From IMG/VR virus record IMGVR_UViG_3300025150_000002, positions 64,001 through 128,000 of that record: a stretch of DNA of 64,000 bases; one strand, written 5' to 3'. Positions 27,866 through 54,376 of the stretch are shown piece by piece. The position numbers and the translations under genes were made by a program. The first letter of the stretch is position 1; each line of letters opens with the position of its first letter. The stretch comes from a virus. Lineage: Duplodnaviria > Caudoviricetes. The notes beneath the pieces were generated by a model that was not told where the DNA came from, searched no databases, and saw only the letters and a list, made by a program, of their open reading frames with translations.

Positions 27866-30796
27866 CTAGATGATAGCACTAGTGCTAGCAGTTCCAGCAG
27901 GTTGCGTCAAGTTAAATATGACAAATTCAGCTGGCTTGTTCGGCGAGAAGCCGATGTCGATGATCACCTTGCCCTGATCCATCGTCACCTGGCTGTTGTT
28001 GTTGCCGTTGCACTTGACGAAGAAGGCCTCCTCCTGGGTGTTACCGGAGAAGTACCCCAGACGAAAGAGCGAGCTGTAGTAGCCCCGGAGAGCTGTCTCG
28101 ATCTTCTGCCAGAGCTGCGGCCCGTTGTTCTCGAAAACCGTCCACTGCAGCTGCAGCTTGGTGGTGTACATCAGGAAGATGTGGAGTTGACGAGCGTTGA
28201 CGTAGCGCCAACGAGCCTCCTTCGAGAGGGACCGCGCTCCGTTGACGATGAACCCGGTAGCAACACCCGTTGGGAGAGGGTTGATTCGCGACTGGTAGAG
28301 GTTGTCCTGATCCAAGCGGGAGAGCTTGATCTCCGGTCCGACCGTTCCAGGCGCGTCCAGTGCCCCATCGACGATCCCCGCAGGGCTCTTTCCTACGTTC
28401 TTGTTCCGAGCGGTCTTCGCATAGACGCCAGCGGCGAAGGGCGACGCCGGGATAAGCTCAGGTAGCTCGGTCGAGTCGTTCAGGAAGTAGACGTTCGGGT
28501 AGTAGATGGCCGCGTTCTTGGTGTTGAACGCCTGAGTCACCAGCACGTACTGGATCGCCTCTGGCACCGTCGTTCCGTTCGCTAGCGCAAAGATCCCGAA
28601 CCGATCCTGGCGCGCATCGCAGAAGTCAACGATGTCCGCCTGGACGAAGGCCGAACCCTCGAAGTCTGGGACGACGACGTTGACCGGCTCCTCGATCAGG
28701 TCCAGAGCGTAGATGCCCTGCTTGGACCCCTCAAGGGTTGGGTTCGAGACATCGTTGCGCGTGATGACGGTGCCGTCCGTTCCGCCCGTCATCTGGTACT
28801 GAACCGCCGAGGACAGCTTCGTGTAGGCCGCCGTGATTGGCGTCGAAGCGGGCGGAGGAACAGCCCAAGTGAAGTCCAACGCTCCGGTGTTGTAGTCGAT
28901 CGTGTTCTCACCGGCGGCATCCACGTCCCCCACAATCACACCCAGCCCGTTGTCCTGGGCGTATTGACCGGTGTTGTAGAGCACATCGATCGTAGAACCT
29001 GTGAGAGGGGCGGATGTCGTGGTGAGTGAAACAGCACCGGTATCGGCGTTGATCACCGACGCTGTCGTCACGTCACCAAGCAGGTTGCCGGTCGTGTTGG
29101 CCCACACGTTGCCGAGGGCGATGTAGTCGACGTAGAAGAACGTACCGGCGATCGGGGCTACTAGTGTAGTCACCTCGATCGGTCCGGATCCAACAGACGA
29201 GGCTGTCTGACTATCGACCAGGTCGATAGTGTTGATGCCGCCACCATCAATCGAGCCGAGTAGCGGGACATCAACTTCCAGGTTGTTGAAATAGACCAGG
29301 TCGATGGTCGCCGTACCGCCGGTAGTCACAATCGCGCCGGGCGCGAAAGACCCACCCGCGATGTTACCGACACGGGCCACGCCCGAGGAAAAGGACAGGA
29401 CGTCACCTGTGACAGCACCCTGCGTGAACGTGTCACCGGGGGCGATGGCCCCTACGATAGCGCTGAGCTCCATCGTAGCGACGTTATCCTTGGTGATGAC
29501 GCTGGATACGTCGTGGTTGGCGACTACAGTCGACAGGGCTACAAGCTCGGCGGTGGTGCCGGTTAGAGCCCCAGTGTCGTAATTGACTGTACCGCCGAGA
29601 GGTAGTGCACCACCGGATCCGGTTAGGTTGCCGGCACCGTCGTCGGTGATGGTTGCCAGACCAATGCCATTCACGTTGACAGAGATCGCCAGCGTACCGG
29701 GGTGAACCGGTACGGATGCCAGAGGTGTTCCAGCCAGGCTGTAGGTCGCCGCAGTGCCACCGATGGTGGTTAGTGTCTGCGGCGCGGCCGCAGCACCAGC
29801 GTACTTCAGACGGAAGACCGTAACCTCCCGGTGAACCGGATTGTCTACGACGCCCGCATTGAAGGTGAACTCCTTGTTCGCACCGTCGATCAGTCCAGCA
29901 CTGGCTGGCAGGACCTCGTTCGCCACCGAAGACCGCTGGTAGAAGATCCGAGTGGACCCCTCCACCACAGGCAGATTGGTGAGCTGAAGCTCGAAGGCAG
30001 TGTTGGTGCTGTTGATTGTTCCTGAGGTCGGAGTGGTCGGCACGTGCTTGGTGGTACCGGACACAGCCGTGAGCTTCAGGGTGTTCGAGAGCACCGGCAC
30101 GTTGGCCAGCGATGCGATGAACCGCTGGGCTAGTGGTGCGCCACCACCAGTGCCGATCGACTCTGACAGTACGGTAACTGGAAGCATCGCCGTCGGCGTA
30201 CCGCCGACACCGATGGTCGTGGTCACCAGGAGACTTGGCCGACGGGGATCCTGAATCACGTTCAGGAGGTAGTCGGAGGCCGACGGGTCGTCGAACTGGA
30301 CCGCCTCGTAGGTCTCAACCGCATCGTCGAATGCCGGGTTGAAGTCCGCCGGGGCCAGGATCTGAAGGTCGTACTTCTCCCACGAGTTCGTGGTGTAGTC
30401 GAGGAAGTTCCGGTTACCCGAGACTCGGATCTTGAGGTCGTTACCCCACACACCCTGTCCGTTGGCTGTGAAGGTCCACTTCTCAGGACCAGGCGTCGCG
30501 TCGATGCTGACCGATGCGAAGGTCGAATCAGCCGGTGCAATGCGGTTGATCCAGGCCCTCTCTCCGCCAGTTCCGAAGAACGCCCGGATGGCCTGGGGAA
30601 CCACACCGCGCGTGTTGACCGGACCGAACACGCGAGTGAAGTCCTCAACAGACCTCACCTCGATAGGGTAGTTGGTCGGACCCTTCTGGGTCCAACCTAC
30701 GACGCCCATCTTTGCGGGCGAGAACTGATCGGGTGCGCGGGCCGGCGCCTTCTCCTGCCCGTAGACACCTGCTGACCGGTATTCAACGATCGGCAT
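27866..30796 (-). CDS. Contractile tail sheath protein (976 aa, large internal insertion)
   Basis: N-terminal AGVYGQE..VGWTQKGP..FTRVFG. C-terminal MTGGTDG, LYQSRINP, GARSLS, RYVNARQL, FENNGPQLW, IGFSPNKPAEF. Confidence 0.92.
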   Translation of the reverse strand: MPIVEYRSAGVYGQEKAPARAPDQFSPAKMGVVGWTQKGPTNYPIEVRSVEDFTRVFGPVNTRGVVPQAIRAFFGTGGERAWINRIAPADSTFASVSIDATPGPEKWTFTANGQGVWGNDLKIRVSGNRNFLDYTTNSWEKYDLQILAPADFNPAFDDAVETYEAVQFDDPSASDYLLNVIQDPRRPSLLVTTTIGVGGTPTAMLPVTVLSESIGTGGGAPLAQRFIASLANVPVLSNTLKLTAVSGTTKHVPTTPTSGTINSTNTAFELQLTNLPVVEGSTRIFYQRSSVANEVLPASAGLIDGANKEFTFNAGVVDNPVHREVTVFRLKYAGAAAAPQTLTTIGGTAATYSLAGTPLASVPVHPGTLAISVNVNGIGLATITDDGAGNLTGSGGALPLGGTVNYDTGALTGTTAELVALSTVVANHDVSSVITKDNVATMELSAIVGAIAPGDTFTQGAVTGDVLSFSSGVARVGNIAGGSFAPGAIVTTGGTATIDLVYFNNLEVDVPLLGSIDGGGINTIDLVDSQTASSVGSGPIEVTTLVAPIAGTFFYVDYIALGNVWANTTGNLLGDVTTASVINADTGAVSLTTTSAPLTGSTIDVLYNTGQYAQDNGLGVIVGDVDAAGENTIDYNTGALDFTWAVPPPASTPITAAYTKLSSAVQYQMTGGTDGTVITRNDVSNPTLEGSKQGIYALDLIEEPVNVVVPDFEGSAFVQADIVDFCDARQDRFGIFALANGTTVPEAIQYVLVTQAFNTKNAAIYYPNVYFLNDSTELPELIPASPFAAGVYAKTARNKNVGKSPAGIVDGALDAPGTVGPEIKLSRLDQDNLYQSRINPLPTGVATGFIVNGARSLSKEARWRYVNARQLHIFLMYTTKLQLQWTVFENNGPQLWQKIETALRGYYSSLFRLGYFSGNTQEEAFFVKCNGNNNSQVTMDQGKVIIDIGFSPNKPAEFVIFNLTQPAGTASTSAII

Positions 30797-46031: not shown

Positions 46032-49000
46032 CTAGTGCAATTCGTCCCATGTACGCCCCGCACGCGCGTCTGCGGTGAAAGGCACCCTCATTCCGGTCGC
46101 GACGCTCTCCATCGAGGTTTTCACCAATCCGCAGAGCTCCTCTTTCATGGCACGGGGCCCTTGGAAGATGAGTTCGTCGTGGACCTGAATCATGAACCGG
46201 AACTTGGCCCACAACTTCGACTCGGCGGGCCGCGAGTTGGCGACCTTATCGTTCCGGGCGTCGTAGAGCTTGATCATCGCCAACTTGATCAGATCCTGGC
46301 AGCTGTTGTGGGTGAAGAACCCCGCCGCGATGTAGGCATGATTGTCACCGTGAATCTCGATGTCATAGGTCGGTGACGATCCTACATGCTCGACCGAAAC
46401 CACCTTGTCCCACCCATATCCCAGCACCTCCTTGGGACCGGGCTCATCAATGTAGTCGAGAACGGCCTCAATCATGTTCTCGCCTGCGTTTCCTGTCCTG
46501 GCATGTCCGATGTAGGTCTGGATTCTACGGCGCATCCTTCGATCATCAAACGCTGTAGATGATCCCTGCCGCGAAGCGAGCGCAGGCGCTCTGGAGGCCA
46601 GCTCGGCCACAGCCGACACAAACGACCTAGGCAGCTCCCGCCTTGGAGCACGGGTCGCAATAAGCTGGAGAGCGCCCGCCAGGGTGGCCGCCTTCCTTGG
46701 GTGGCGAAGAGGGACCCACCTGTTGAAGGCCTGAAATCCACGATATGAGACATCAAGTCGATACTGCTTGGTCATCCCTCTCTTCTTGCCCGTTCGCGCC
46801 ACGTCGAGCTCGCGGATCGCGCAATCAATCCCGAGAGAACTGGCGAGTTTCCACGCACCTTCAACAAGCTCGCGAACGCGAGAAGAGTAGTTGATGGTCA
46901 GGGATGTATAGGTCTTCTGCTTGTAGCTGAGAACCGACCCGTCAGTGTCGATCAGACCGGCGAGCACAGCGCCTCGCAGTTCGGGACTGGCTGTGTAAGC
47001 CCACTTCGGGATCCTCTTAGCCTGCTTAGAAACGCAGTCCAACCCGAGGATCATCAGGTTTGAACGAGCGCGACTACTGTTACAAACCAGGTCCCTGACC
47101 TTTCCTCCGCGATTCGTATTCCTAAGTCCCCAGCGGAGCTTCTTGCGCGCTGTCTCGCCCTGCGACCTCAAAACCGACTCTTCTAGAGATTCAGGCCAGC
47201 CTGGATCTCTTGCCGATGCCGCCAGGGTAAACCCTTGGGATGACCCGTAGTAACCGTCACCGATGAGTGCACCGACCAAATATGCATCGTCGACGGACGC
47301 CCCATGATCGTCATCACCGCCTGCCGCCAGCACATCGTGCGTGGCTAGCATATCGCCCGAGTCGAGCTCCGACGTCTTGGTCCACACCATTCGCAAGCCA
47401 TCCATGGTCGCGAACCTGTGATCTGCAGAACAGGTGATGGTCCTGCCGCTCGACAGCGTTACCTTAAACACGTCTTTCACGCCGGAGTCGATGACGTCGT
47501 AGTCACTGGTGAATTTCTCGCCGTCGAAAATCGGCAGCCTGTCCGTCGCGAGGTCCTCGATGCTCACGTAGCCCTGCTCTGTGAGAACAGGAGTAGATGG
47601 AGTCACACACCCGCTGACGCGGAACTGGATCGCCTTAGTACCTGCGACGTAGTCATTCTTCTGCCAGTCGGTATCAAGCCGGCGCCGACGTCGCGCAATG
47701 TTGTAGGCGATGTAGTTGTCTTTGACGAGCTGGTTGATGGTCCGCTCATGCCAAGAGGCGATTCCAGGGTAGGCCTGATGCCAGAGCTCGATCAGCCGCT
47801 GGCCGTAACCGATCTGCGGGTTACCGTCCTCATCGAACAGACCTGCATAGATGCAGAACTTGGGTGCTCCCATGCGGTAAAGCAGCCCGAAGTTGCTGTC
47901 CAATACAGCAACACTGTTGCAAATCATCGCAGTTCGTTCGGGCTCGTAAACGTCGAACACTGGGGCCTCCCCAGCATCGGTCACGCTGCGAACTTTTGCG
48001 GTCCAAATTCCAGCGTCTCGATATGCCTTGATCTCGTCCGGTAGCACGTCCTCTAGTAGCTCCAGTCGAGTATCGCCAAATCGAACTGGGCTCTTCTTGC
48101 GGCGGATCACCTCGCGCAGCTTGTCTTTCCTCTTACGCTTGGTCTTGTCGTAGATCGATTCCAGTAGGACCTCTACGCCATCCAAGAACCGGTTGGCGTA
48201 ATCAGCGCTCTGTGGGGCCATGGCCTCCAGGAGCTTGTCAGACTTCTCAGTTGACACGAATCCGACGCGTTCAGCGAACCGCTCGATATCGCGCTGTCGT
48301 CTGACCGTCCAGCACCAGTAAGGTTGCTCTCCCTTTAGGGTGGGCCGCATTTCACTATGGATAAACCCGAGGATGTCGATGTTCATCATCTCGGCGTGGA
48401 TTTGACGAATTAGCTTCTCGGACTTGCTGGTATAGACGATCGCAAAGCTATTTCTCGCCTTTCCAACCGCCTTTACAGTACCGTCGCCCTCGAACAGAGC
48501 CCGGAAGAACTCGCGCTTCAGCGACCACGGTGCACTCCTCACACACCTCGGAATGTCCTTCTCACCAGAGCAGGATTTGAACCCGAGATGGGCCATCCAC
48601 AAATTCAGCTTCTTTGAGGCTACTGTATAGTGCGTAGCCTCCTTATCCAGTGGATGATGTTCAGTGATGGTCCTATCGTTTACCACCAACCTCCAACAGC
48701 CGATGAAATCCTCGACCATCTCTACTGAGCAGTCACCAAACCCGAAGGGCATCTGATAGTAACCGCGAGACTCATCAGTTACCATCCGCCCCTCGGACAC
48801 GAAGTAGCCGAAAAACCGAGCAACCTCTGGCGTCATCTCGGTCGGAAGATCAATATCCTTGAGCGCATTCCCTCCGACCACATCAATCGATGGTAGGGCC
48901 ACGTCCTTTCCGTGAACATCACGACCGGTCATGATCAGGCATGGGTCATCGGGCCGCAGATCAGCAGCCATCACTCGTTCGACCTTTCCGCCTCGCATCA

Positions 49001-52000
49001 CAAAGAATTCGTGGTCCGGCGTGGCCGTGAGCTTGATCCCGTATTCGAGGTTCACATCGACGACGGAACGAACTCCAGGGCTCCAGGTCGAGTCGGTGTA
49101 GCGAATCTGACCATCGTCAGACATGATCCCGATACGCTTCTTGAACCTGTCCGGCTCGGTCACCACCTCGCCCATCTCAAGCAGCCCGTGCTCTGTAAGG
49201 AGCATGGCGTCAGCGGTCACGCAGTTCTTTGCCAACGGATTACGCTTAACTTGGACGTCCTCTGCAGTTCGTTGGTGAAGGTCGACGTGTCGGCAGCGCT
49301 TCTGATGCTCGATGTTTGACAGGCCGCACCCGGGACAAAGCGCCGGGTTGCTGTCGGTGTCCGGCAACCACCCCTCAGGCTGCCACGTGTGGCCGCACTC
49401 GTTGCAGGACCAGTTCAGGTAGCGATCGCATGCTGCGCCGTCCTTGTTCCTGCAATGACCGGTGTTCAAGAACACCTCGATCATGTTGAGCTCGTTTGCC
49501 AGGTGGGCTGCCATCCGCAACTCCATCTGCGATTGGCCGCTCACCAACCCATTCTCTAGGACATACGTGTGTGTCCCCTCGACGGTGATCTGCCAAACCT
49601 CCCGCGAACCCACCGGAGTAATCGACACGATTCGATGATTGTCTGATTTCGCGCGGCCTCGATTTGCGCAGGACCTACCGCAGAACCTTGCTGCGCTCTT
49701 CGTAGGCAGGAAATCCTGGTTACATGTTAAGCACGCTTTAGTCCCTGGCTTACCAGACGTAAAACACTCGCGGGAGCAGAACCGAGTCTTTTTTCCGTCA
49801 CTTCTGTAATAGACCACCCCGCACCGGGCGCAGGTCAGGTCACAGCCGTTCTCGCGTGACTTGTGATAGCACGCTCTGCTACAGAACTTACCGTCTGCAG
49901 AAGGTGGTTGGTAAAACGCACTGCCGCAGGAAGCGCAGTTAGTCACGGCTCCCTTCAGGTTCCCGTGATTTGGGTTTCCGTCTGCTTTATAGGATCGACG
50001 GTTCTTCCTCTGGCCTTCGACTAATTGCTGCTTCTTTCGCCGGCGCTGAGATAGGGTGGCCGCGTCCCACCAGCGCTGAGCCCCCTGCCCCCTGTTCTCT
50101 CGGCTGGGCAACCACCGCAGATTAGCACCTCTGTTATCAAAGGTGTCTCCGTTGATGTGGTCGGCATCGTGGCCCTCAGGACGTTCCCCGTGAAAGTGCT
50201 CAGCGAGTACGATGTGCTGAAACGCAGCAACCCCGCGAACCGCCCACATCTTATATCTACCTAGCTGTGTCTCGCGCACGTGAGCCAAGCGATCCCCTGG
50301 ATTCAAGTACTTGGTCTCAACGAGACGTCCTCCGTATGTCATCCATTTATGATCCTCGGTACAAATCACCGATGACCCGTCTTCTAGAACCAGTTCTACG
50401 CACGGAGCAATACCGACCTTGCCACCGGCAACCACTGGTCGAATCTCTAGACTTCTCCCATCGGCAGATGACAACACCGGAGTCTCTGTAGCTGCTACCT
50501 CTTCAATCGGCATGACCCCATTGACGGTGACAATCGGGGTCCCAGCGACCAAACAGTAGTCGGCGTCTATCAGGCATAGCTGAGATCGTTCCTCGTCGTA
50601 ATCGTTCTCTAGATGGGCGCAGAATGCCTTTCGGATCAGATCCTTGTCCCGTGGTTGGTTCATAAGATTCACGGGGTCCGCCGAGTTGTGATTGACGAAC
50701 CCTTGAGCCAGGTAGCTGTGGTCACCCTCTACGGTGATGTCCCAGACATCTTCGACGCTGACTGGAGTGATGCTGGTAACTCGTGCCCAAGTTCGGACGC
50801 GATTCTCTTGATCACCGTAGGGAGGGCCTTGTCGATCTGCTTCGTAGTGAACCTCACCACTCGGTAGCCAAGTTCCTTCGCCTTCTTCGCCTTCCGACGA
50901 TCCCTGGCCTTGGTCTTCTCGCACTTCCGGTGAAACTCGCCATCGACCTCGACCAGTAGTTTCTTTTCTGGCCAAGCGAAGTCCGCTTGCCAGTTCTTGA
51001 AGAAACAGAACAGACGCCGATGCGGGATTCCAGCCGCCGTCAAAGCTCGTGAGAGTCTCATCTCCCGACGATTGGCAGAAAAGGTTAGATGGGACTTCTC
51101 GATCTCCCCGCGCTCGATCAGAGCCTGCATGAACGATCCGCTCTGCTTGACCGCACTCGCTAGAGACATCAGTCTCTGATACGCCTCTACCAGGGAGGCA
51201 AACGCCTTGGCCGGGTCGGTCGACAGCTTCGATACTTGTGGACATAGCGCCGCAAGAGCTTTGTACTCGGTATCCGTGAGCCTGCTGATCCAGGACATCG
51301 TTCCGTGAGTGTGCGCTGAAATCCCGTGATGTCGCATGTCCATCAGGACAATGGATTCCCCCACCCCAAGCTGATCTGCGATCTCGACCGCCGACAGACC
51401 CCTGGACACCTCGGTCTCCAAAAGATTCTTGGGGAAGAACGCCTCCTCGTTCCTCTTGGATGCGCTCAGGAGCCTGCCGTGCTTCACTGCCAGGTCGTCG
51501 GAGAACTGCTTGTAGGTCTTGACCGCCCTGATCAGGGCCTGATGAGATACGCCGAAGGCTACCTTGGCCTGCTCTTGCGTCAGATTGCTGTCGACGAAGA
51601 TCCTCTTGAACGACGCCTTCGAGAGTATGAATCCCTTCGAGCGATCTCGGCGAACCCATGTCGGCTCGTCGGGAAGGATGTCCTCCAAGTCCGGGAGCTT
51701 GGTAGGGTTCCCCCGAAACAGTTCGGGGAACTCCCATCCGTACACTGCCTTGCAGGTCAAGCTGATCCCATCCGACAGCCCGTACAACTTGGCCTTCTTG
51801 TAGACCGGCCTCGGGTCCTCGGCGTAGACCCTGATGAACGAGGGTCGATCTAGCACCCAACGTCGTTGCCTGACGGGCCGCCTTAGTCTCACATACCTCG
51901 GCTCGAAGCAGCCGGTCCCCTCGTTCGAGGTCCTTGAGATCACGCCACCCATTGTTGGTGAGGAATCTGTGGTCCCTTGTGCATCTGATTCGATTTCCGT

Positions 52001-53417
52001 CATCGGTCACCACCTCGAACATCAGGTCTGGGCCCTTGTTGAACAGGTTCAACACTCGCCCCTCCCGACCCTCATGGGTGATGATCATAACATCAGTTCC
52101 TGCAAACCGACCAAGTTCTGAGATTCTGACTGAACGACGGAAGTTCTCTCCTCTCAATCGGATAGAGAGCTTTGATGTCCCAGAAATGCAGCTGAGGCGA
52201 CCAATGACGGTCCCCGTCTGTCTAAACCGAGCGTAGATCCGACCCTTGTTGTCTGGATCGTTGGCGAGCGAAATCAACTTCTTGCAGAAGCTGCTGTCGA
52301 TAACGCTGAGCGAACGATACTTCAGCAGCTTGCCGACCAGTGGAAACTGATCCTTGCGGTGTTTGATGGCCTTGTCGCCGGTACCGTACTGTTCGAGCTC
52401 CTCGTTGTAGTCGACACCTTTGGTGGGTAGCCCCAGCCCACCCTTCTCTGGCGGGTTGTAGAGGAAGTCGGACACCTGCTTAGGCGAGCGCAGATTGGGG
52501 ACCCAGCCAACAGTCTCCTTGAACTCGTTCAGGATCTCCTGCTGCTCTTTGTTGATCCGCTCCTGAACAGTGACCAGCCACTCCCAATCAATAAAGCAAC
52601 CAGTGATCTCCATCTCCATGAGGATCCGCTGGATCTTCATCTCGATCTTCCAGTAGATCTTCTCCAGGTCGGAGTAGACGCCGGGCGTGTCGTCTAGTGG
52701 TGAGCACCACTCGCCCTTGTGCTTGCGCGGAGGGTCCTGCTTCCGCATGGAGTTTATGGCCCATTTCCAGAGCCGATAGGTCCAGGCACAGTCGTCGGCA
52801 GCGTAAACGCCCAGAGGCTTCTTGTTCGCGAAGCCGAAGGTGGCTTGGCCCCCAAAGGCTTCACTGTAGGTGGTCATCTTGTGGCCGAAGACCTGATCGA
52901 CTCGTGGCTTCAGACCATAGCGCCTCAGCCGTTCGTCCGCGATGTAGTCCGCGAGCATGCTGTCAGCGATGACGTTGTTGACGATCAACGGCTCGTCGAG
53001 ACCGCTCTTTAGGTAGAGGAAGGCGTCGTCGAAGATACCGTTGTGGCGGACCGCAATGATGTGCTTGAGGTCCCACAACTCTCGAAGCTGAAGCATGGTG
53101 GAGCGCTGATCAACCGGTTCACGAAGCGCACGCACTTCGCCATCAACCGTGTGCTCCATCGTTCCGTCCGTAAACGGAAACCAGGCGCGAACTGGTCGCT
53201 GCGATGGATTCTTTTCGTTTGGGACGTAGAAGGCTACACCCTCTATACGATCCTTACGGGGCGACAGCCCTGTTGTTTCCAGGTCGTATGAAAAGACGCC
53301 TTCTTCTTCGGCGCGCTCAATCAGATACGGGACGGAGACATCGCAAGTATCGGTAGGGTCCCAGGAGTTACCTTCTTGGTTGGGCTTAACTTTAGCTTTG
53401 GACCTAGCCACCAACAC
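46032..53417 (-). CDS. polA: Family A DNA polymerase with 3'-5' exonuclease and four inteins (about 741 aa after splicing)
   Basis: Exonuclease YDLETTG, HNGIFD, YAADD. Polymerase TGTVIGRLS|S, DADY|SQMELR, AKN|SNFGLLY, QFRVSG|SCQD, IQVHDEL. Confidence 0.93.
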   Translation of the reverse strand: MLVARSKAKVKPNQEGNSWDPTDTCDVSVPYLIERAEEEGVFSYDLETTGLSPRKDRIEGVAFYVPNEKNPSQRPVRAWFPFTDGTMEHTVDGEVRALREPVDQRSTMLQLRELWDLKHIIAVRHNGIFDDAFLYLKSGLDEPLIVNNVIADSMLADYIADERLRRYGLKPRVDQVFGHKMTTYSEAFGGQATFGFANKKPLGVYAADDCAWTYRLWKWAINSMRKQDPPRKHKGEWCSPLDDTPGVYSDLEKIYWKIEMKIQRILMEMEITGCFIDWEWLVTVQERINKEQQEILNEFKETVGWVPNLRSPKQVSDFLYNPPEKGGLGLPTKGVDYNEELEQYGTGDKAIKHRKDQFPLVGKLLKYRSLSVIDSSFCKKLISLANDPDNKGRIYARFRQTGTVIGRLSCISGTSKLSIRLRGENFRRSVRISELGRFAGTDVMIITHEGREGRVLNLFNKGPDLMFEVVTDDGNRIRCTRDHRFLTNNGWRDLKDLERGDRLLRAEVCETKAARQATTLGARSTLVHQGLRRGPEAGLQEGQVVRAVGWDQLDLQGSVRMGVPRTVSGEPYQAPGLGGHPSRRADMGSPRSLEGIHTLEGVVQEDLRRQQSDARAGQGSLRRISSGPDQGGQDLQAVLRRPGSEARQAPERIQEERGGVLPQESFGDRGVQGSVGGRDRRSAWGGGIHCPDGHATSRDFSAHSRNDVLDQQAHGYRVQSSCGAMSTSIEAVDRPGQGVCLPGRGVSETDVSSECGQAERIVHAGSDRARGDREVPSNLFCQSSGDETLTSFDGGWNPASASVLFLQELASGLRLARKETTGRGRWRVSPEVREDQGQGSSEGEEGEGTWLPSGEVHYEADRQGPPYGDQENRVRTWARVTSITPVSVEDVWDITVEGDHSYLAQGFVNHNSADPVNLMNQPRDKDLIRKAFCAHLENDYDEERSQLCLIDADYCLVAGTPIVTVNGVMPIEEVAATETPVLSSADGRSLEIRPVVAGGKVGIAPCVELVLEDGSSVICTEDHKWMTYGGRLVETKYLNPGDRLAHVRETQLGRYKMWAVRGVAAFQHIVLAEHFHGERPEGHDADHINGDTFDNRGANLRWLPSRENRGQGAQRWWDAATLSQRRRKKQQLVEGQRKNRRSYKADGNPNHGNLKGAVTNCASCGSAFYQPPSADGKFCSRACYHKSRENGCDLTCARCGVVYYRSDGKKTRFCSRECFTSGKPGTKACLTCNQDFLPTKSAARFCGRSCANRGRAKSDNHRIVSITPVGSREVWQITVEGTHTYVLENGLVSGQSQMELRMAAHLANELNMIEVFLNTGHCRNKDGAACDRYLNWSCNECGHTWQPEGWLPDTDSNPALCPGCGLSNIEHQKRCRHVDLHQRTAEDVQVKRNPLAKNCVTADAMLLTEHGLLEMGEVVTEPDRFKKRIGIMSDDGQIRYTDSTWSPGVRSVVDVNLEYGIKLTATPDHEFFVMRGGKVERVMAADLRPDDPCLIMTGRDVHGKDVALPSIDVVGGNALKDIDLPTEMTPEVARFFGYFVSEGRMVTDESRGYYQMPFGFGDCSVEMVEDFIGCWRLVVNDRTITEHHPLDKEATHYTVASKKLNLWMAHLGFKSCSGEKDIPRCVRSAPWSLKREFFRALFEGDGTVKAVGKARNSFAIVYTSKSEKLIRQIHAEMMNIDILGFIHSEMRPTLKGEQPYWCWTVRRQRDIERFAERVGFVSTEKSDKLLEAMAPQSADYANRFLDGVEVLLESIYDKTKRKRKDKLREVIRRKKSPVRFGDTRLELLEDVLPDEIKAYRDAGIWTAKVRSVTDAGEAPVFDVYEPERTAMICNSVAVLDSNFGLLYRMGAPKFCIYAGLFDEDGNPQIGYGQRLIELWHQAYPGIASWHERTINQLVKDNYIAYNIARRRRRLDTDWQKNDYVAGTKAIQFRVSGCVTPSTPVLTEQGYVSIEDLATDRLPIFDGEKFTSDYDVIDSGVKDVFKVTLSSGRTITCSADHRFATMDGLRMVWTKTSELDSGDMLATHDVLAAGGDDDHGASVDDAYLVGALIGDGYYGSSQGFTLAASARDPGWPESLEESVLRSQGETARKKLRWGLRNTNRGGKVRDLVCNSSRARSNLMILGLDCVSKQAKRIPKWAYTASPELRGAVLAGLIDTDGSVLSYKQKTYTSLTINYSSRVRELVEGAWKLASSLGIDCAIRELDVARTGKKRGMTKQYRLDVSYRGFQAFNRWVPLRHPRKAATLAGALQLIATRAPRRELPRSFVSAVAELASRAPALASRQGSSTAFDDRRMRRRIQTYIGHARTGNAGENMIEAVLDYIDEPGPKEVLGYGWDKVVSVEHVGSSPTYDIEIHGDNHAYIAAGFFTHNSCQDLIKLAMIKLYDARNDKVANSRPAESKLWAKFRFMIQVHDELIFQGPRAMKEELCGLVKTSMESVATGMRVPFTADARAGRTWDELH
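46305..47609 (-). mobile_element. Polymerase intein 4 (LAGLIDADG, 435 aa)
   Basis: CVTPST..SADHRF..GALIGDG..LAGLIDTDG..AYIAAGFFTHN|S. Confidence 0.9.
47898..49223 (-). mobile_element. Polymerase intein 3 (LAGLIDADG, 442 aa, C-terminal Asp)
   Basis: CVTADA..TPDHEF..GYFVSEG..RALFEGDG..AMICNSVAVLD|S. Confidence 0.85.
49533..50555 (-). mobile_element. Polymerase intein 2 (HNH plus zinc-finger repeats, 341 aa, C-terminal Gln)
   Basis: CLVAGT..TEDHKW..DHINGDTFDNRGANL..three CxxC/FCSxxC-type repeats..YVLENGLVSGQ|S. Confidence 0.88.
50685..52190 (-). mobile_element. Polymerase intein 1 (502 aa; middle is the alternative frame of a nested nuclease gene)
   Basis: CISGTS..TRDHRF..SYLAQGFVNHN|S. Confidence 0.88.
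50729..51892 (-). CDS. DUF559/Vsr-like endonuclease nested out of frame inside polymerase intein 1
   Basis: REMRLSRAL..QADFAWPEKKLLVEVDGEFH..RDRRK..LGYRVVRF, with HTH-like repeats upstream. The ORF track starts at 52003; the GTG at 51892 after GAGG is the more likely start. Confidence 0.8.
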   Translation of the reverse strand: MRLRRPVRQRRWVLDRPSFIRVYAEDPRPVYKKAKLYGLSDGISLTCKAVYGWEFPELFRGNPTKLPDLEDILPDEPTWVRRDRSKGFILSKASFKRIFVDSNLTQEQAKVAFGVSHQALIRAVKTYKQFSDDLAVKHGRLLSASKRNEEAFFPKNLLETEVSRGLSAVEIADQLGVGESIVLMDMRHHGISAHTHGTMSWISRLTDTEYKALAALCPQVSKLSTDPAKAFASLVEAYQRLMSLASAVKQSGSFMQALIERGEIEKSHLTFSANRREMRLSRALTAAGIPHRRLFCFFKNWQADFAWPEKKLLVEVDGEFHRKCEKTKARDRRKAKKAKELGYRVVRFTTKQIDKALPTVIKRIASELGHELPASLQSASKMSGTSP

Positions 53418-53454
53418 CTCCCGGCTCTAGCTCTTTTACCCGACTCGGCTACAA

Positions 53455-53490
53455 ACAGAAACAGCGCGGCATAAGCCGCGCTGTTTCTGT
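53455..53490 (-). terminator. Intrinsic terminator between the SSB-like gene and polA
   Basis: 16-bp perfect stem ACAGAAACAGCGCGGC/GCCGCGCTGTTTCTGT with a 4-nt loop and U-rich 3' end. Confidence 0.85.
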
Positions 53491-53506
53491 CGTAAAAGGC
53501 CGAGAC

Positions 53507-54376
53507 TTAGTAGTTGATCTCGGCCTCAGAGGCCGCGCCGGCTGCGCTGGCAACGGCGGCGCTCGCGTCACCCGAGTCGTCGTCATCACCGCCCTTGATA
53601 GCGGAGCCATCGCTGCGAATGTCCTCAGCGACCTTGGTCAGCTGAGCGTGGCTCTTCGGCTTGAGCACGATGTCGTAGTTGATCGGCTGGATGAACCGCT
53701 CGACCGGCATGCCGTACTCGGCGGCCCGCTTCTCGAACTCAGCCTTCATCTGCTCGTCGTCGAGCTTCTGCGTGAAGTACCAGACGTCGCCGATCCGAGG
53801 CGAGTCCTTGTACGAGACGACCTCACGCCCATCCTTCATCTCCTTCAGCGGCTCGGAACGAGTGACCTCGAAGAGCGAACCACGGAACCCCTGAGCACGA
53901 TCACCGTTGGCGTTCATGCGCTGAGTCCAGGTGTTGGTGATCAGGATCAGCCGACGTAGATCGGTGTAGGTCACCGAGCTCTTCTTGCCGTCCTTGGTCC
54001 GCTCGAAGGTGTACTTGTTCCGGTCGATGCCGGTCAACACGACGTACCAGCTCGGATCCTTGTTCAGAACCTCACAGACAGGGCAGGGACGCGGATCCGC
54101 AGCCGTCTTCGGGCACACGACGATGTTGTCCTTCGTGCCACGGAGGTTGAACATGTGGATGTTGACGCTGTAGGCGTCATCGGTACTGGCGATGTCGTCC
54201 AGTGTGAGGATCGGCTGATTCTTGGTGCCAGGCCGGAGCTTCAGCGCCTTGACCTGCTTCAGCTGGGGTCCATTGCTCCCCGTGATGGATTCGGACAGGT
54301 AGTAGAGCGCCTGTTCGTTGTTGCCTCGACCACCACCACGCTTCGGTGGTGGACCTCCTGCTCCACGATGTGCCAT
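53507..54376 (-). CDS. Putative single-stranded DNA-binding protein
   Basis: Upstream of the polymerase with an AAAGGA SD and its own terminator. CPK..CPVC motif and an acidic flexible C-terminal tail. Confidence 0.55.
   Translation of the reverse strand: MAHRGAGGPPPKRGGGRGNNEQALYYLSESITGSNGPQLKQVKALKLRPGTKNQPILTLDDIASTDDAYSVNIHMFNLRGTKDNIVVCPKTAADPRPCPVCEVLNKDPSWYVVLTGIDRNKYTFERTKDGKKSSVTYTDLRRLILITNTWTQRMNANGDRAQGFRGSLFEVTRSEPLKEMKDGREVVSYKDSPRIGDVWYFTQKLDDEQMKAEFEKRAAEYGMPVERFIQPINYDIVLKPKSHAQLTKVAEDIRSDGSAIKGGDDDDSGDASAAVASAAGAASEAEINY

Follow-up and report, generated by a model that had tools for sequence, protein, structure and literature searches.

A predicted Vsr-like homing endonuclease gene overprinted in the +1 frame on a contiguous intein of a phage family-A DNA polymerase

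Introduction

The slot between blocks B and F of an intein normally holds an in-frame endonuclease domain. Contiguous inteins with the endonuclease in an alternate frame have already been published (Gorbalenya 1998, 'Non-canonical inteins'; Gosselin, Arsenault & Gogarten, bioRxiv 10.1101/2025.01.02.630785; Phillips, DeSimone & Gogarten, bioRxiv 10.64898/2026.09.14.751524), and the reported cases comprise antisense LAGLIDADG and antisense VSR-like endonucleases, sense frame-3 endonuclease-VII-like ones (in actinophage TerL, minor capsid, ThyX and DnaE) and a sense +2 LAGLIDADG endonuclease in cyanobacterial dnaX. The element described here, intein 1 of a family-A DNA polymerase (PolA), shares with them a continuous host frame, an intact endonuclease ORF lying between the splice blocks in another frame, purifying selection on the endonuclease frame with relaxed selection on the host-frame peptide, and a proposed origin in which a free-standing endonuclease invaded a mini-intein. 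It differs from them in that its endonuclease is VSR-like/DUF559, on the sense strand and in the +1 frame, and its host gene encodes the family-A polymerase of a groundwater phage that has not been cultured; its family, moreover, is deep (27-73% identity) and includes a fractured form at this very site. A Vsr-like gene lying within PolA in the +1 frame of the sense strand is a new form of the published alternate-frame layout.

A related arrangement is found in the fractured genes (Dassa et al. 2009, PMC2677866), in which, as set out in passages of that paper, the two halves of a split intein flank a free-standing endonuclease gene of Vsr-like or GIY-YIG type. According to the same passages, these genes have in common with intein 1 the Vsr-like nuclease superfamily, the phage or metagenomic setting, the order on one strand (extein-N, IntN, endonuclease, IntC, extein-C) and the overlap of the endonuclease 3' end with the IntC coding region. 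However, intein 1 lacks the 27-51-nt non-coding spacer described there, and its endonuclease gene is overprinted along its full length on the host frame. Since this frame has no stop, intein 1 is contiguous and would splice in cis, unlike the fractured genes. In those passages, PolA is not named among the fractured enzymes.

A phage host frame that stays stop-free over a same-strand overprinted endonuclease gene is also known from the ShiLan-type insertions (Arsenault et al. 2025, PMC11855218), which lie in frame in phage methylases and hide an HNH endonuclease that is out of frame. These insertions have no splicing domain and are retained as a loop of the host protein, whereas the filler of intein 1 is predicted to be removed.

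As regards the enzyme itself, the best structural match to the C-terminal Vsr-like domain of the nuclease is I-Bth0305I ('EDxHD'; Taylor et al. 2011, PMC3239194; 3R3P). Both appear to be modular, with an N-terminal helical/HTH DNA-binding region, and both belong to self-splicing elements of phage DNA-metabolism genes. The gene of I-Bth0305I, however, lies in a recA group I intron and not in an intein, the sequence similarity is marginal, and the nuclease is a DUF559 protein by Pfam with the core VEVDGxxH, in contrast to the core IEVNGVYW of I-Bth0305I.

The polymerase gene and intein 1

The window analysed is a stretch of 64,000 nucleotides (positions 64,001 to 128,000 of the IMG/VR record IMGVR_UViG_3300025150_000002). 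Its PolA gene occupies positions 46032..53417 of the minus strand (2461 codons) and encodes 3'-5' exonuclease and polymerase domains and four inteins, with Pfam matches to PF01612, PF00476, PF14890 (four regions), HNH_3, LAGLIDADG_3 and Hom_end. It is the only PolA copy in the 203.5-kb virus record, which therefore holds no rescue copy. The polymerase frame is a single uninterrupted ORF with 0 stops in 2461 codons, in agreement with a previous reading of the sequence alone (hereafter, the sequence-only reading), which had described it as open across the nuclease gene.

Intein 1 (50685..52190, minus strand) comprises 502 aa, from C410 to N911 of the polymerase, followed by Ser+1, and is inserted at the conserved PolA site 'GRLSS.PNLQN' in the context ...GTVIGRLS/C...VNHN/SADPVN, where the slash marks the splice junctions. 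The sequence-only reading had placed an intein with normal N- and C-terminal splice blocks at 50685-52190, and both its coordinates and its view of the blocks were right. The class-1 residues C1, T71 and H74 (block B TxxH) are invariant in 13 aligned homologues, and the intein ends (...GFVNHN/S) with an invariant N502, preceded by an H501 whose conservation is at least 90% (K/R in L007/L005) and followed by Ser at +1. The match to PF14890 is well above the cut-off (5.1e-14, 52.8 bits vs 35.8). Taking into account that the blocks are intact and that the PolA gene is single, intein 1 is probably removed by protein splicing.

The splicing domain is made of two lobes separated by a long insert, all on the minus strand. 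The N-terminal lobe (51876..52190) covers intein residues 1 to ~105 and blocks A and B, with polymerase-frame wobble over residues 1 to ~90 and a pLDDT of 88-95, and the C-terminal lobe (50685..50795), with blocks F and G (...VEDVWDITVEGDHSYLAQGFVNHN), shows polymerase-frame selection and a pLDDT of 88-96. In the AF2 model of the host-frame intein, these lobes (residues 1-105 and 466-503) are beta-rich with a pLDDT of ~90, while residues 110-464 have a pLDDT of ~30 and no secondary structure. The host-frame filler (50796..51875, residues ~106-465) is the nuclease gene read in the -1 frame; it is stop-free, unconserved, rich in R/G/S/Q/A/P and predicted to be disordered. The non-natural middle that the sequence-only reading had noticed here is indeed filler, although its length had been overestimated at ~390 residues: from the structure and the wobble analysis, the disordered loop of the host-frame mini-intein measures about 355-375.

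The nuclease gene

The slot between blocks B and F of intein 1 would be filled by a complete nuclease gene of free-standing type, on the same strand and in the +1 frame. This putative homing endonuclease ORF (P0002; 50729..52003, minus strand; DUF559/Vsr-like) encodes 424 aa from the ATG at 52003. At the 5' end it runs over the block-B region, and it terminates within block F (TAG, 50731..50729), its 3' end overlapping the IntC coding region; from the nuclease stop to the end of the intein there are 16 codons in the window and 9-36 in the relatives. With 425 codons, it is the longest open run in the polymerase +1 frame, followed by one of 99, and outside it this frame contains 90 stops, about one per 27 codons.

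The product would combine an N-terminal helical/HTH DNA-binding part with a C-terminal Vsr-like DUF559 nuclease. The match to PF04480 (DUF559) covers residues 335-405 (E=1.1e-9, 38.5 bits vs a cut-off of 20.6) and reaches 41.5 bits in a six-frame genome search. The Vsr-like/DUF559 catalytic domain spans residues ~305-410 (50774..51091, minus strand), with N311, E314, D341, E352, D354, H358 and D368 invariant, the last five across 19 nuclease sequences. The nuclease has conserved E, D, H and D residues, which may correspond to those of the published EDxHD motif. An HTH-like segment at residues ~190-230 (51314..51436, minus strand; ...LSAVEIADQLGVGESIV...) is a putative DNA-binding module, being helical in the model, with weak profile matches that all fall below the curated cut-offs (NarL HTH, E=0.013 with the family profile; HTH_50, 0.03; HTH_23, 0.0067 in L089). 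Of the HTH plus DUF559/Vsr-like nuclease that the sequence-only reading had assigned to 51892-50729, the DUF559 domain is thus well supported, the HTH stays below those cut-offs and the start at 51892 is doubtful, as discussed below.

The predicted structure (pLDDT 79.5) is folded from about residue 35 to 415, and the first ~30 residues from the ATG at 52003 are disordered. In Foldseek searches, the model matched 3R3P (I-Bth0305I; TMt 0.76, prob 1.00), the DUF559 protein 3HRL (0.79) and Vsr (1CW0/1VSR); when the whole model was used, only the C-terminal domain gave these matches, and the long helical N-terminal part gave rise to spurious mitoribosomal ones. A sequence search of the PDB with the single protein returned 3R3P as sole match (E=0.036; 1.8e-3 with the family profile). 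No NUMOD family was matched in the nuclease, a blastn search with the region as query gave no match among 50,697 phage records, and no relatives emerged when viral contigs were scanned with the nuclease protein by itself.

Selection on the two frames

The question of whether an open frame of this length could arise by chance was answered by shuffling. Synonymous-codon permutation within the nuclease ORF predicts 14.1 +/- 2.9 stops in the polymerase frame, and resampling of the ORF from the genome codon usage predicts 19.1 +/- 3.9, vs 0 observed; a zero-stop outcome was obtained in 0 of 20,000 shuffles under each null model. Among 16 non-redundant lineages (nuclease identity <90% to each other, spanning 27-73% identity), ~199 host-frame stops are expected in total and there are none. 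Both frames are open in all 16, the host frame over 314-469 codons in each. It has to be noted that a host-frame stop requires a nuclease codon ending in T followed by a codon starting with AA, AG or GA, so every stop can be avoided by synonymous choice; third-position T is found before such codons in 0 of 1564 cases across the lineages, vs 9-35% elsewhere. Thus, selection keeps the polymerase frame stop-free across the nuclease gene.

Controls agree with this. Full-length relatives of the nuclease are nested in a PolA frame of 1000-2093 aa at 19 of 19 loci, while distant, ordinary DUF559 genes, a natural negative control, are nested at none of 58. Within the family, L089, which has the same insertion site and a terminated IntN, carries 10 host-frame stops across its nuclease gene. 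The sequence-only reading had warned that stop-poor shadow frames could mislead, and this caveat was a fair one, given that a junk shadow ORF of 276 codons is present in another gene of the window; even so, the shuffles and the count over 16 lineages reject chance as the cause of the double open frame. The sole shadow ORF of the genome that is longer than 276 codons has 348 and is a second real case.

The frame under selection changes twice along intein 1. Wobble periodicity follows the polymerase frame at intein residues 1 to ~90 and 466-502, and the nuclease frame at ~91-465. The dN/dS ratio is 0.11-0.46 in the nuclease frame and 1.26-1.81 in the host frame. Codon usage in the nuclease frame is gene-like (0.262 vs 0.277 +/- 0.089 for genes; GC3 0.75), as the sequence-only reading had perceived when it called it typical, and the host frame scores -0.074, with a GC3 of 0.42. 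In the middle of intein 1, therefore, the nuclease frame is under purifying selection and the host-frame peptide is not. Shuffles, homologues, dN/dS and wobble thus bear out the proposal, made in the sequence-only reading, of a free-standing-type nuclease lying out of frame in the slot of a mini-intein.

Start and translation of the nuclease

An SD-like GAGG (52013..52016, minus strand) lies 9 nt upstream of the ATG at 52003 and is a candidate ribosome-binding site for the nuclease. Of the 14 lineages whose 5' sequence is available, 12 have an SD-like motif with an ATG, at a spacing of 7-9 nt (AGGA at 11 nt in L024), and the ATG at 52003 is aligned within the clade of the window sequence (WIN, L005, L007, L001, L008, L011). 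The GTG at 51890..51892 (minus strand), the start proposed in the sequence-only reading, marks the point at which nuclease-frame selection and the folded structure begin; it is GTA in L005, the closest relative, and was rejected as a conserved start. The ATG, which lies ~35 codons upstream of this onset, appears to be the better start candidate together with its SD. Nevertheless, SD and ATG coincide with intein codons that are themselves conserved, and may be preserved as a side effect.

Concerning transcription, a promoter scan of 50500-53600 found no sigma-70-like promoter, and terminator-like matches in this interval lie only on the opposite strand and are at chance level. No Rfam family, including group I and group II introns, was matched in 50000-53000, which, together with the open host frame, argues against the nuclease residing in an RNA intron.

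Proposed mechanism and alternative explanations

The explanation that we consider highly probable is a contiguous class-1 intein with a complete +1-frame Vsr-like homing endonuclease gene in its endonuclease slot, the junk translation being spliced out and the whole homing as a unit. Ribosomes translating the polymerase would traverse the nuclease gene in the -1 frame, producing a disordered filler of ~355 residues that joins the two splicing lobes, and protein splicing would then excise this filler along with the intein. Because essential polymerase motifs lie downstream, host-frame stops are selected against. The nuclease would most likely be made separately, by internal initiation at the SD and ATG at 52003, inside the N-lobe coding region. 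It would cut intein-free PolA alleles at or near GRLS/S, and repair would copy intein and nuclease as one unit. The start codon, the translation of either frame, the splicing activity, the cleavage specificity and the homing are all inferred from sequence, as is, for the history of the insertion, the presumed invasion of a mini-intein by the nuclease gene.

The alternative that retains some weight, although it is improbable, concerns how the nuclease is made: some ribosomes would shift by +1 close to where the N-lobe ends and so make a PolN-IntN-nuclease fusion, terminated at the nuclease stop, while most stay in frame. It would fit with the lack of a promoter-like site inside the PolA gene, with the location of the candidate starts in a region translated in another frame, with an SD-like GAGG that precedes the junction codon (51892) by 3 nt, where there is nucleotide-level conservation in WIN, L001 and L005, and with the predicted disorder of the ~30 residues after the ATG. 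However, the sequences yielded no conserved slippery or hungry-codon motif, clades differ in where the frames meet relative to block B, and the SD and ATG recur in 12 of 14 lineages; moreover, L089 keeps the same ATG although its IntN ends in TGATGA, so there the nuclease must be translated independently. A pair of programmed frameshifts, +1 after block B and -1 before block F, would instead restore a conventional intein with an internal Vsr-like domain, and the sequence-only reading had mentioned it as its alternative. The nuclease ORF fills the slot between B and F almost exactly, and same-strand ORFs could in principle be joined in this way. The idea is nevertheless very unlikely, given that it offers no reason for a host frame open over hundreds of codons in every lineage: between the junctions the polymerase frame would be unconstrained, yet it has 0 stops where ~199 are expected, and L089, in which the host frame is unused, carries 10. 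Neither junction has a conserved shift signal and, as far as we know, there is no precedent for two efficient frameshifts in one essential gene.

That the nuclease gene is a decaying relic, with selection on the host frame alone and the +1 ORF open by inertia, has little more in its favour. Homing theory predicts that an endonuclease decays once it is fixed, and expression of the nuclease is inferred; but an intact +1 ORF is retained by every one of the 16 lineages, even those at 27% identity, whereas this frame has a stop about every 27 codons in the rest of the polymerase gene, and the low dN/dS of the nuclease frame, the invariance of the catalytic-type residues D341, E352, D354, H358 and D368 in 19 sequences and the confident nuclease model speak against decay. 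Lastly, a single metagenomic assembly can contain indel errors, and indels that offset each other at the two ends of an in-frame endonuclease domain could mimic the layout. Such an artefact is close to inconceivable: contigs assembled from four sequencing runs, each of a different study and one of them a hot-spring study of 2025, are identical base for base over 50600-52300, with 0 differences and 0 gaps (X5, X6 and X7 are independent; X2 is possibly from the source sample), the layout is shared by >20 independent contigs from other samples, and indels could not strip the 14-19 expected stops from the wrong frame.

Relatives at the same PolA site

All 16 lineages are PolA inteins at the same GRL(S)/C…HN/S site. 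The site also holds other forms. L089 is a fractured form, with TGATGA after IntN and a GTG, at or overlapping the endonuclease stop, as putative start codon for IntC; by the description in the passages of PMC2677866 it is a textbook fractured gene. Another relative (L087/L088) has a split intein without the nuclease, and empty GRLS/SS sites occur in PolA homologues at 40-52% identity; P0026 and P0030 are examples of natural empty sites.

The relatives were compared by a 17-row tree and by pairwise identities. Correlations of the latter (IntN-nuclease, r=0.77; extein-IntN, r=0.34) show the splicing domain and the nuclease to co-diverge, and their discordance, together with the empty sites, suggests that intein and nuclease are mobile.

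It is tempting, although somewhat doubtful, to regard the overprinted contiguous layout as a long-lived ancestral state of this intein family, from which the fractured and split forms were derived by single steps. The order of events may then have been a nonsense mutation in the unconstrained filler (L089), followed by loss of the endonuclease (L087/L088). Two features would allow fracture in a single step: the endonuclease would already be provided with its own start, and an IntC start codon may appear at the endonuclease stop or overlap it. If this were true, the order of events in Dassa 2009 would be reversed or complemented, and the birth of a natural split intein would become testable with one designed stop codon.

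Implications

With this locus, a class of overlapping genes known only from 2025-26 preprints and one 1998 prediction gains a well-controlled example. Its same-strand overlap of ~1.1 kb is kept solely by the need for a stop-free frame, and is thus a clean example of stop-only selection. It has to be noted that gene callers split such polymerases and call the nuclease alone, so polymerases of this kind are mis-annotated as fragments in metagenomic phage genomes. Splicing lobes that apparently tolerate a disordered insert of 355 residues may also interest intein engineers. In sum, the empty, overprinted-contiguous, fractured and endonuclease-free split forms at one PolA site provide a system for the study of endonuclease entry and of the birth of split inteins.

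The polymerase gene and its nested nuclease

The window spans bases 64001-128000 of a virus record of 203,521 bp (58% GC, CheckV completeness 89%), and nearly identical DNA turns up in metagenome runs from groundwater, aquifers and hot springs. The record carries a single family-A DNA polymerase gene, PolA (53417..46032, minus strand), whose 2461 codons encode 3'-5' exonuclease and polymerase domains and four inteins. Intein 1 (52190..50685, minus strand; residues C410-N911) lies between ...GTVIGRLS and SADPVNLMNQP, within a segment conserved in family-A polymerases, GRLSS.PNLQN. Inside it, in the +1 frame relative to the polymerase (host) frame, a 424-codon nuclease ORF, P0002 (52003..50729, minus strand), gives a Pfam DUF559 match above threshold, the only one in the genome. 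No Rfam intron match was found at this region.

The ends of inteins 2 and 3 (47898..50555, minus strand) were placed, from the translation only, by restoring extein motifs. Intein 2 (HNH_3 type) ends in ...VSGQ once DY|SQMELR is restored, and intein 3 (LAGLIDADG_3 type) in ...AVLD once AKN|SNFGLLY is restored; in both, the C-terminal residue is not Asn and the penultimate His is absent.

Chance, selection and artefact

The sequence-only reading had described a nuclease in another frame within an open polymerase intein, an observation that is confirmed here, and had interpreted it as a dual-coding intein, to be checked by synonymous shuffling, by the openness and dN/dS of each frame in homologues, and against compensating indel errors. 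This interpretation is supported by the shuffles, lineage conservation, dN/dS and identical contigs. Taking the nuclease frame as coding, and permuting synonymous codons within the ORF or resampling them from genome codon usage, 14.1 +/- 2.9 or 19.1 +/- 3.9 polymerase-frame stops are expected, respectively, while none is observed; chance is rejected, since 20,000 shuffles of each type yielded not one stop-free frame. The +1 frame is interrupted by 90 stops over the rest of the polymerase gene; it stays open for 425 codons at the nuclease, and for 99 at most elsewhere in the gene. A baseline for the length of such runs in this genome is provided by a 276-codon stop-free ORF (29487..30314, minus strand) in the +2 frame of a Thr/Gly/Ala/Val-rich structural gene of 976 aa (27866..30796); its Arg/Gly/His-rich translation is junk, and it appears to be a product of chance.

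Selection follows the frames. When the intein DNA was aligned with four homologues, the polymerase-frame wobble position was the most variable at intein residues 1 to about 90 and 466-502, and the nuclease-frame wobble position at about 91-465. Over about 350 overlap codons, in seven pairs, dN/dS (Nei-Gojobori) is 0.11-0.46 in the nuclease frame versus 1.26-1.81 in the host frame. Codon usage in the overlap is gene-like exclusively in the nuclease frame (score 0.262, versus 0.277 +/- 0.089 for genes; GC3 0.75), the host frame scoring -0.074 with a GC3 of 0.42. In this phase a host-frame stop always requires a nuclease codon ending in T, and every amino acid has at least one codon that does not; thus, by the genetic code itself, the nuclease pays for the overlap in synonymous choices only.

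Two explanations would dispense with a continuously open polymerase frame. Compensating indel errors at the two ends would leave the host frame free to gain stops, and it has none; moreover, Logan contigs from four runs in four studies show neither base differences nor gaps against the window over 50600-52300. One of these runs (X2) is possibly the source sample of the window, leaving three as independent, and one is a 2025 hot-spring sample. Paired programmed frameshifts would likewise have released the host frame, and the lack of stops speaks against them too. The dual-frame architecture of intein 1 and the selection acting on it can be held as real with high confidence.

Conservation and other states of the site

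Nuclease homologues range from 72% to 37% identity in protein searches, and down to 27% in a metagenome scan. All 19 scanned loci with full-length relatives show the nuclease ORF nested, in the +1 frame, within an open frame of 1000-2093 codons, and so do 4/4 further loci obtained by exact protein look-up; at every nested locus this long frame encodes a family-A polymerase whose intein occupies the same site. Across the 16 lineages obtained by clustering at 90% identity, host-frame stops number 0, versus about 199 expected from synonymous permutation, and third-position T before AA/AG/GA codons occurs in 0/1564 cases (elsewhere, 9-35% T). As a control, 58 more distant DUF559 genes from the same scan include none with an open -1 frame, their open runs spanning 3-110 codons. 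In public metagenome records (L001, L002, L003 and others), automatic gene calls choose the nuclease ORF, and the polymerase ends up as fragments or as spurious antisense ORFs, so these polymerases are mis-annotated.

The same site is found in other states. It is uninterrupted (GRLS|SS) in the PolA homologues P0026, P0027 and P0030-P0033, whose N-exteins are 40-52% identical. In a JGI 3300081960 contig (L089:713-4018), the gene for the N-extein and N-terminal splicing part (IntN) ends in TGATGA; a DUF559 gene follows, again in the +1 frame, and its TAG is overlapped by the GTG start of the gene for the C-terminal splicing part (IntC) and C-extein. The locus has the fractured-gene layout that Dassa et al. 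2009 described, and the 10 host-frame stops across its nuclease gene show how this frame looks when it is not needed. Two further loci (L087:6001-9868 and L088:6001-9868) have a split intein without a nuclease: the IntN gene ends in ...EVDDER and a stop, and the IntC gene, which is in the +1 frame and starts at an ATG lying 11 nt upstream, overlaps this stop. Both also carry a second, LAGLIDADG intein further downstream.

In a nuclease tree of 17 rows, the fractured form groups, with moderate support, among contiguous ones, close to L013 and L012/L002. Pairwise identities co-vary much more between IntN and nuclease (r=0.77) than between extein and IntN (r=0.34), and some pairs are discordant: the exteins of L012 and L002 are nearer to the window's than that of L001, while their nucleases are more distant. 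These comparisons suggest that intein and nuclease may travel between polymerases as one unit.

Structure and translation of the nuclease

The nuclease-frame product is modelled confidently (mean pLDDT 79.5, 19-sequence alignment); it is disordered over its first 30 residues and folded between about residues 35 and 415. Its C-terminal domain resembles the catalytic domain of the homing endonuclease I-Bth0305I (3R3P, TMt 0.76), the DUF559 protein 3HRL (0.79) and E. coli Vsr; by sequence, the family profile also hits 3HRL and 3R3P, as well as NarL-type HTH domains, the last weakly. Residues D341, E352, D354, H358 and D368 are invariant in 19/19 sequences. In the host-frame model (13 homologues), beta-rich lobes at 1-105 and 466-503 are confident (pLDDT about 90), while 110-464 lacks secondary structure (pLDDT about 30); C1, T71, H74 and N502 are invariant and H501 nearly so. 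Intein 1 probably undergoes protein splicing, and its nuclease would act in cleavage and homing.

An additional N-terminal module, well folded and about 70-80 aa long (P0002 residues about 45-125; 51628..51870, minus strand; RRWVLDRPSF...CKAVYGWEFP..LFRG), without any family match, is carried by the clade of the window, L005, L007, L001, L008, L011 and L006, and is missing from the other clades.

At GTG 51892, where the start was earlier placed, nuclease-frame selection and fold begin, but the codon is not kept, being GTA in the closest relative. Among the 14 lineages with 5' sequence, 12 have an ATG that follows an SD-like motif at a spacing of 7-9 nt (11 nt in L024), and L014 and L023 lack one. 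In the window's clade the ATG is aligned, at 52003, with GAGG at 52016..52013; in fractured L089 the equivalent ATG is retained, and its GAGG, 12 nt upstream, falls narrowly outside the 4-11 nt range scored. Since these signals consist of conserved intein codons, their conservation is not independent proof of the start. Internal initiation at this ATG is the candidate favoured by the sequence, although a low-level +1 frameshift could possibly yield the nuclease.

Relation to described inteins

Alternate-frame intein endonucleases were predicted by Gorbalenya in 1998, as later papers cite. Actinophage inteins encode antisense LAGLIDADG, antisense VSR-like and sense frame-3 endonuclease-VII-like enzymes (bioRxiv 10.1101/2025.01.02.630785), a cyanobacterial dnaX intein has a +2-frame LAGLIDADG with the same frame-dependent selection (bioRxiv 10.64898/2026.09.14.751524), and out-of-frame HNH genes are known in non-splicing insertions (PMC11855218).

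An independent second case occurs outside the window in the same genome, in a helicase gene (genome 134974..137734), where an intein (CIAGDS...LLVHN|C) with a Ser/Thr/Gly-rich host-frame translation contains a LAGLIDADG_2 ORF (PF03161, 1.9e-16; genome 136922..135879, minus strand; L090:980-2023) of 348 codons in the +2 frame.

Intein 1 of PolA differs from the published cases in being VSR-like, on the sense strand, in the +1 frame and in PolA, and its family is deep and includes a fractured member. Since VSR-like endonucleases had been tied to inteins solely in split form (PMC2677866) or antisense, what is new is the combination of nuclease type, strand, frame and host. Thus, although the phenomenon itself has already been described, PolA intein 1 provides a very clean and evolutionarily informative case of it.
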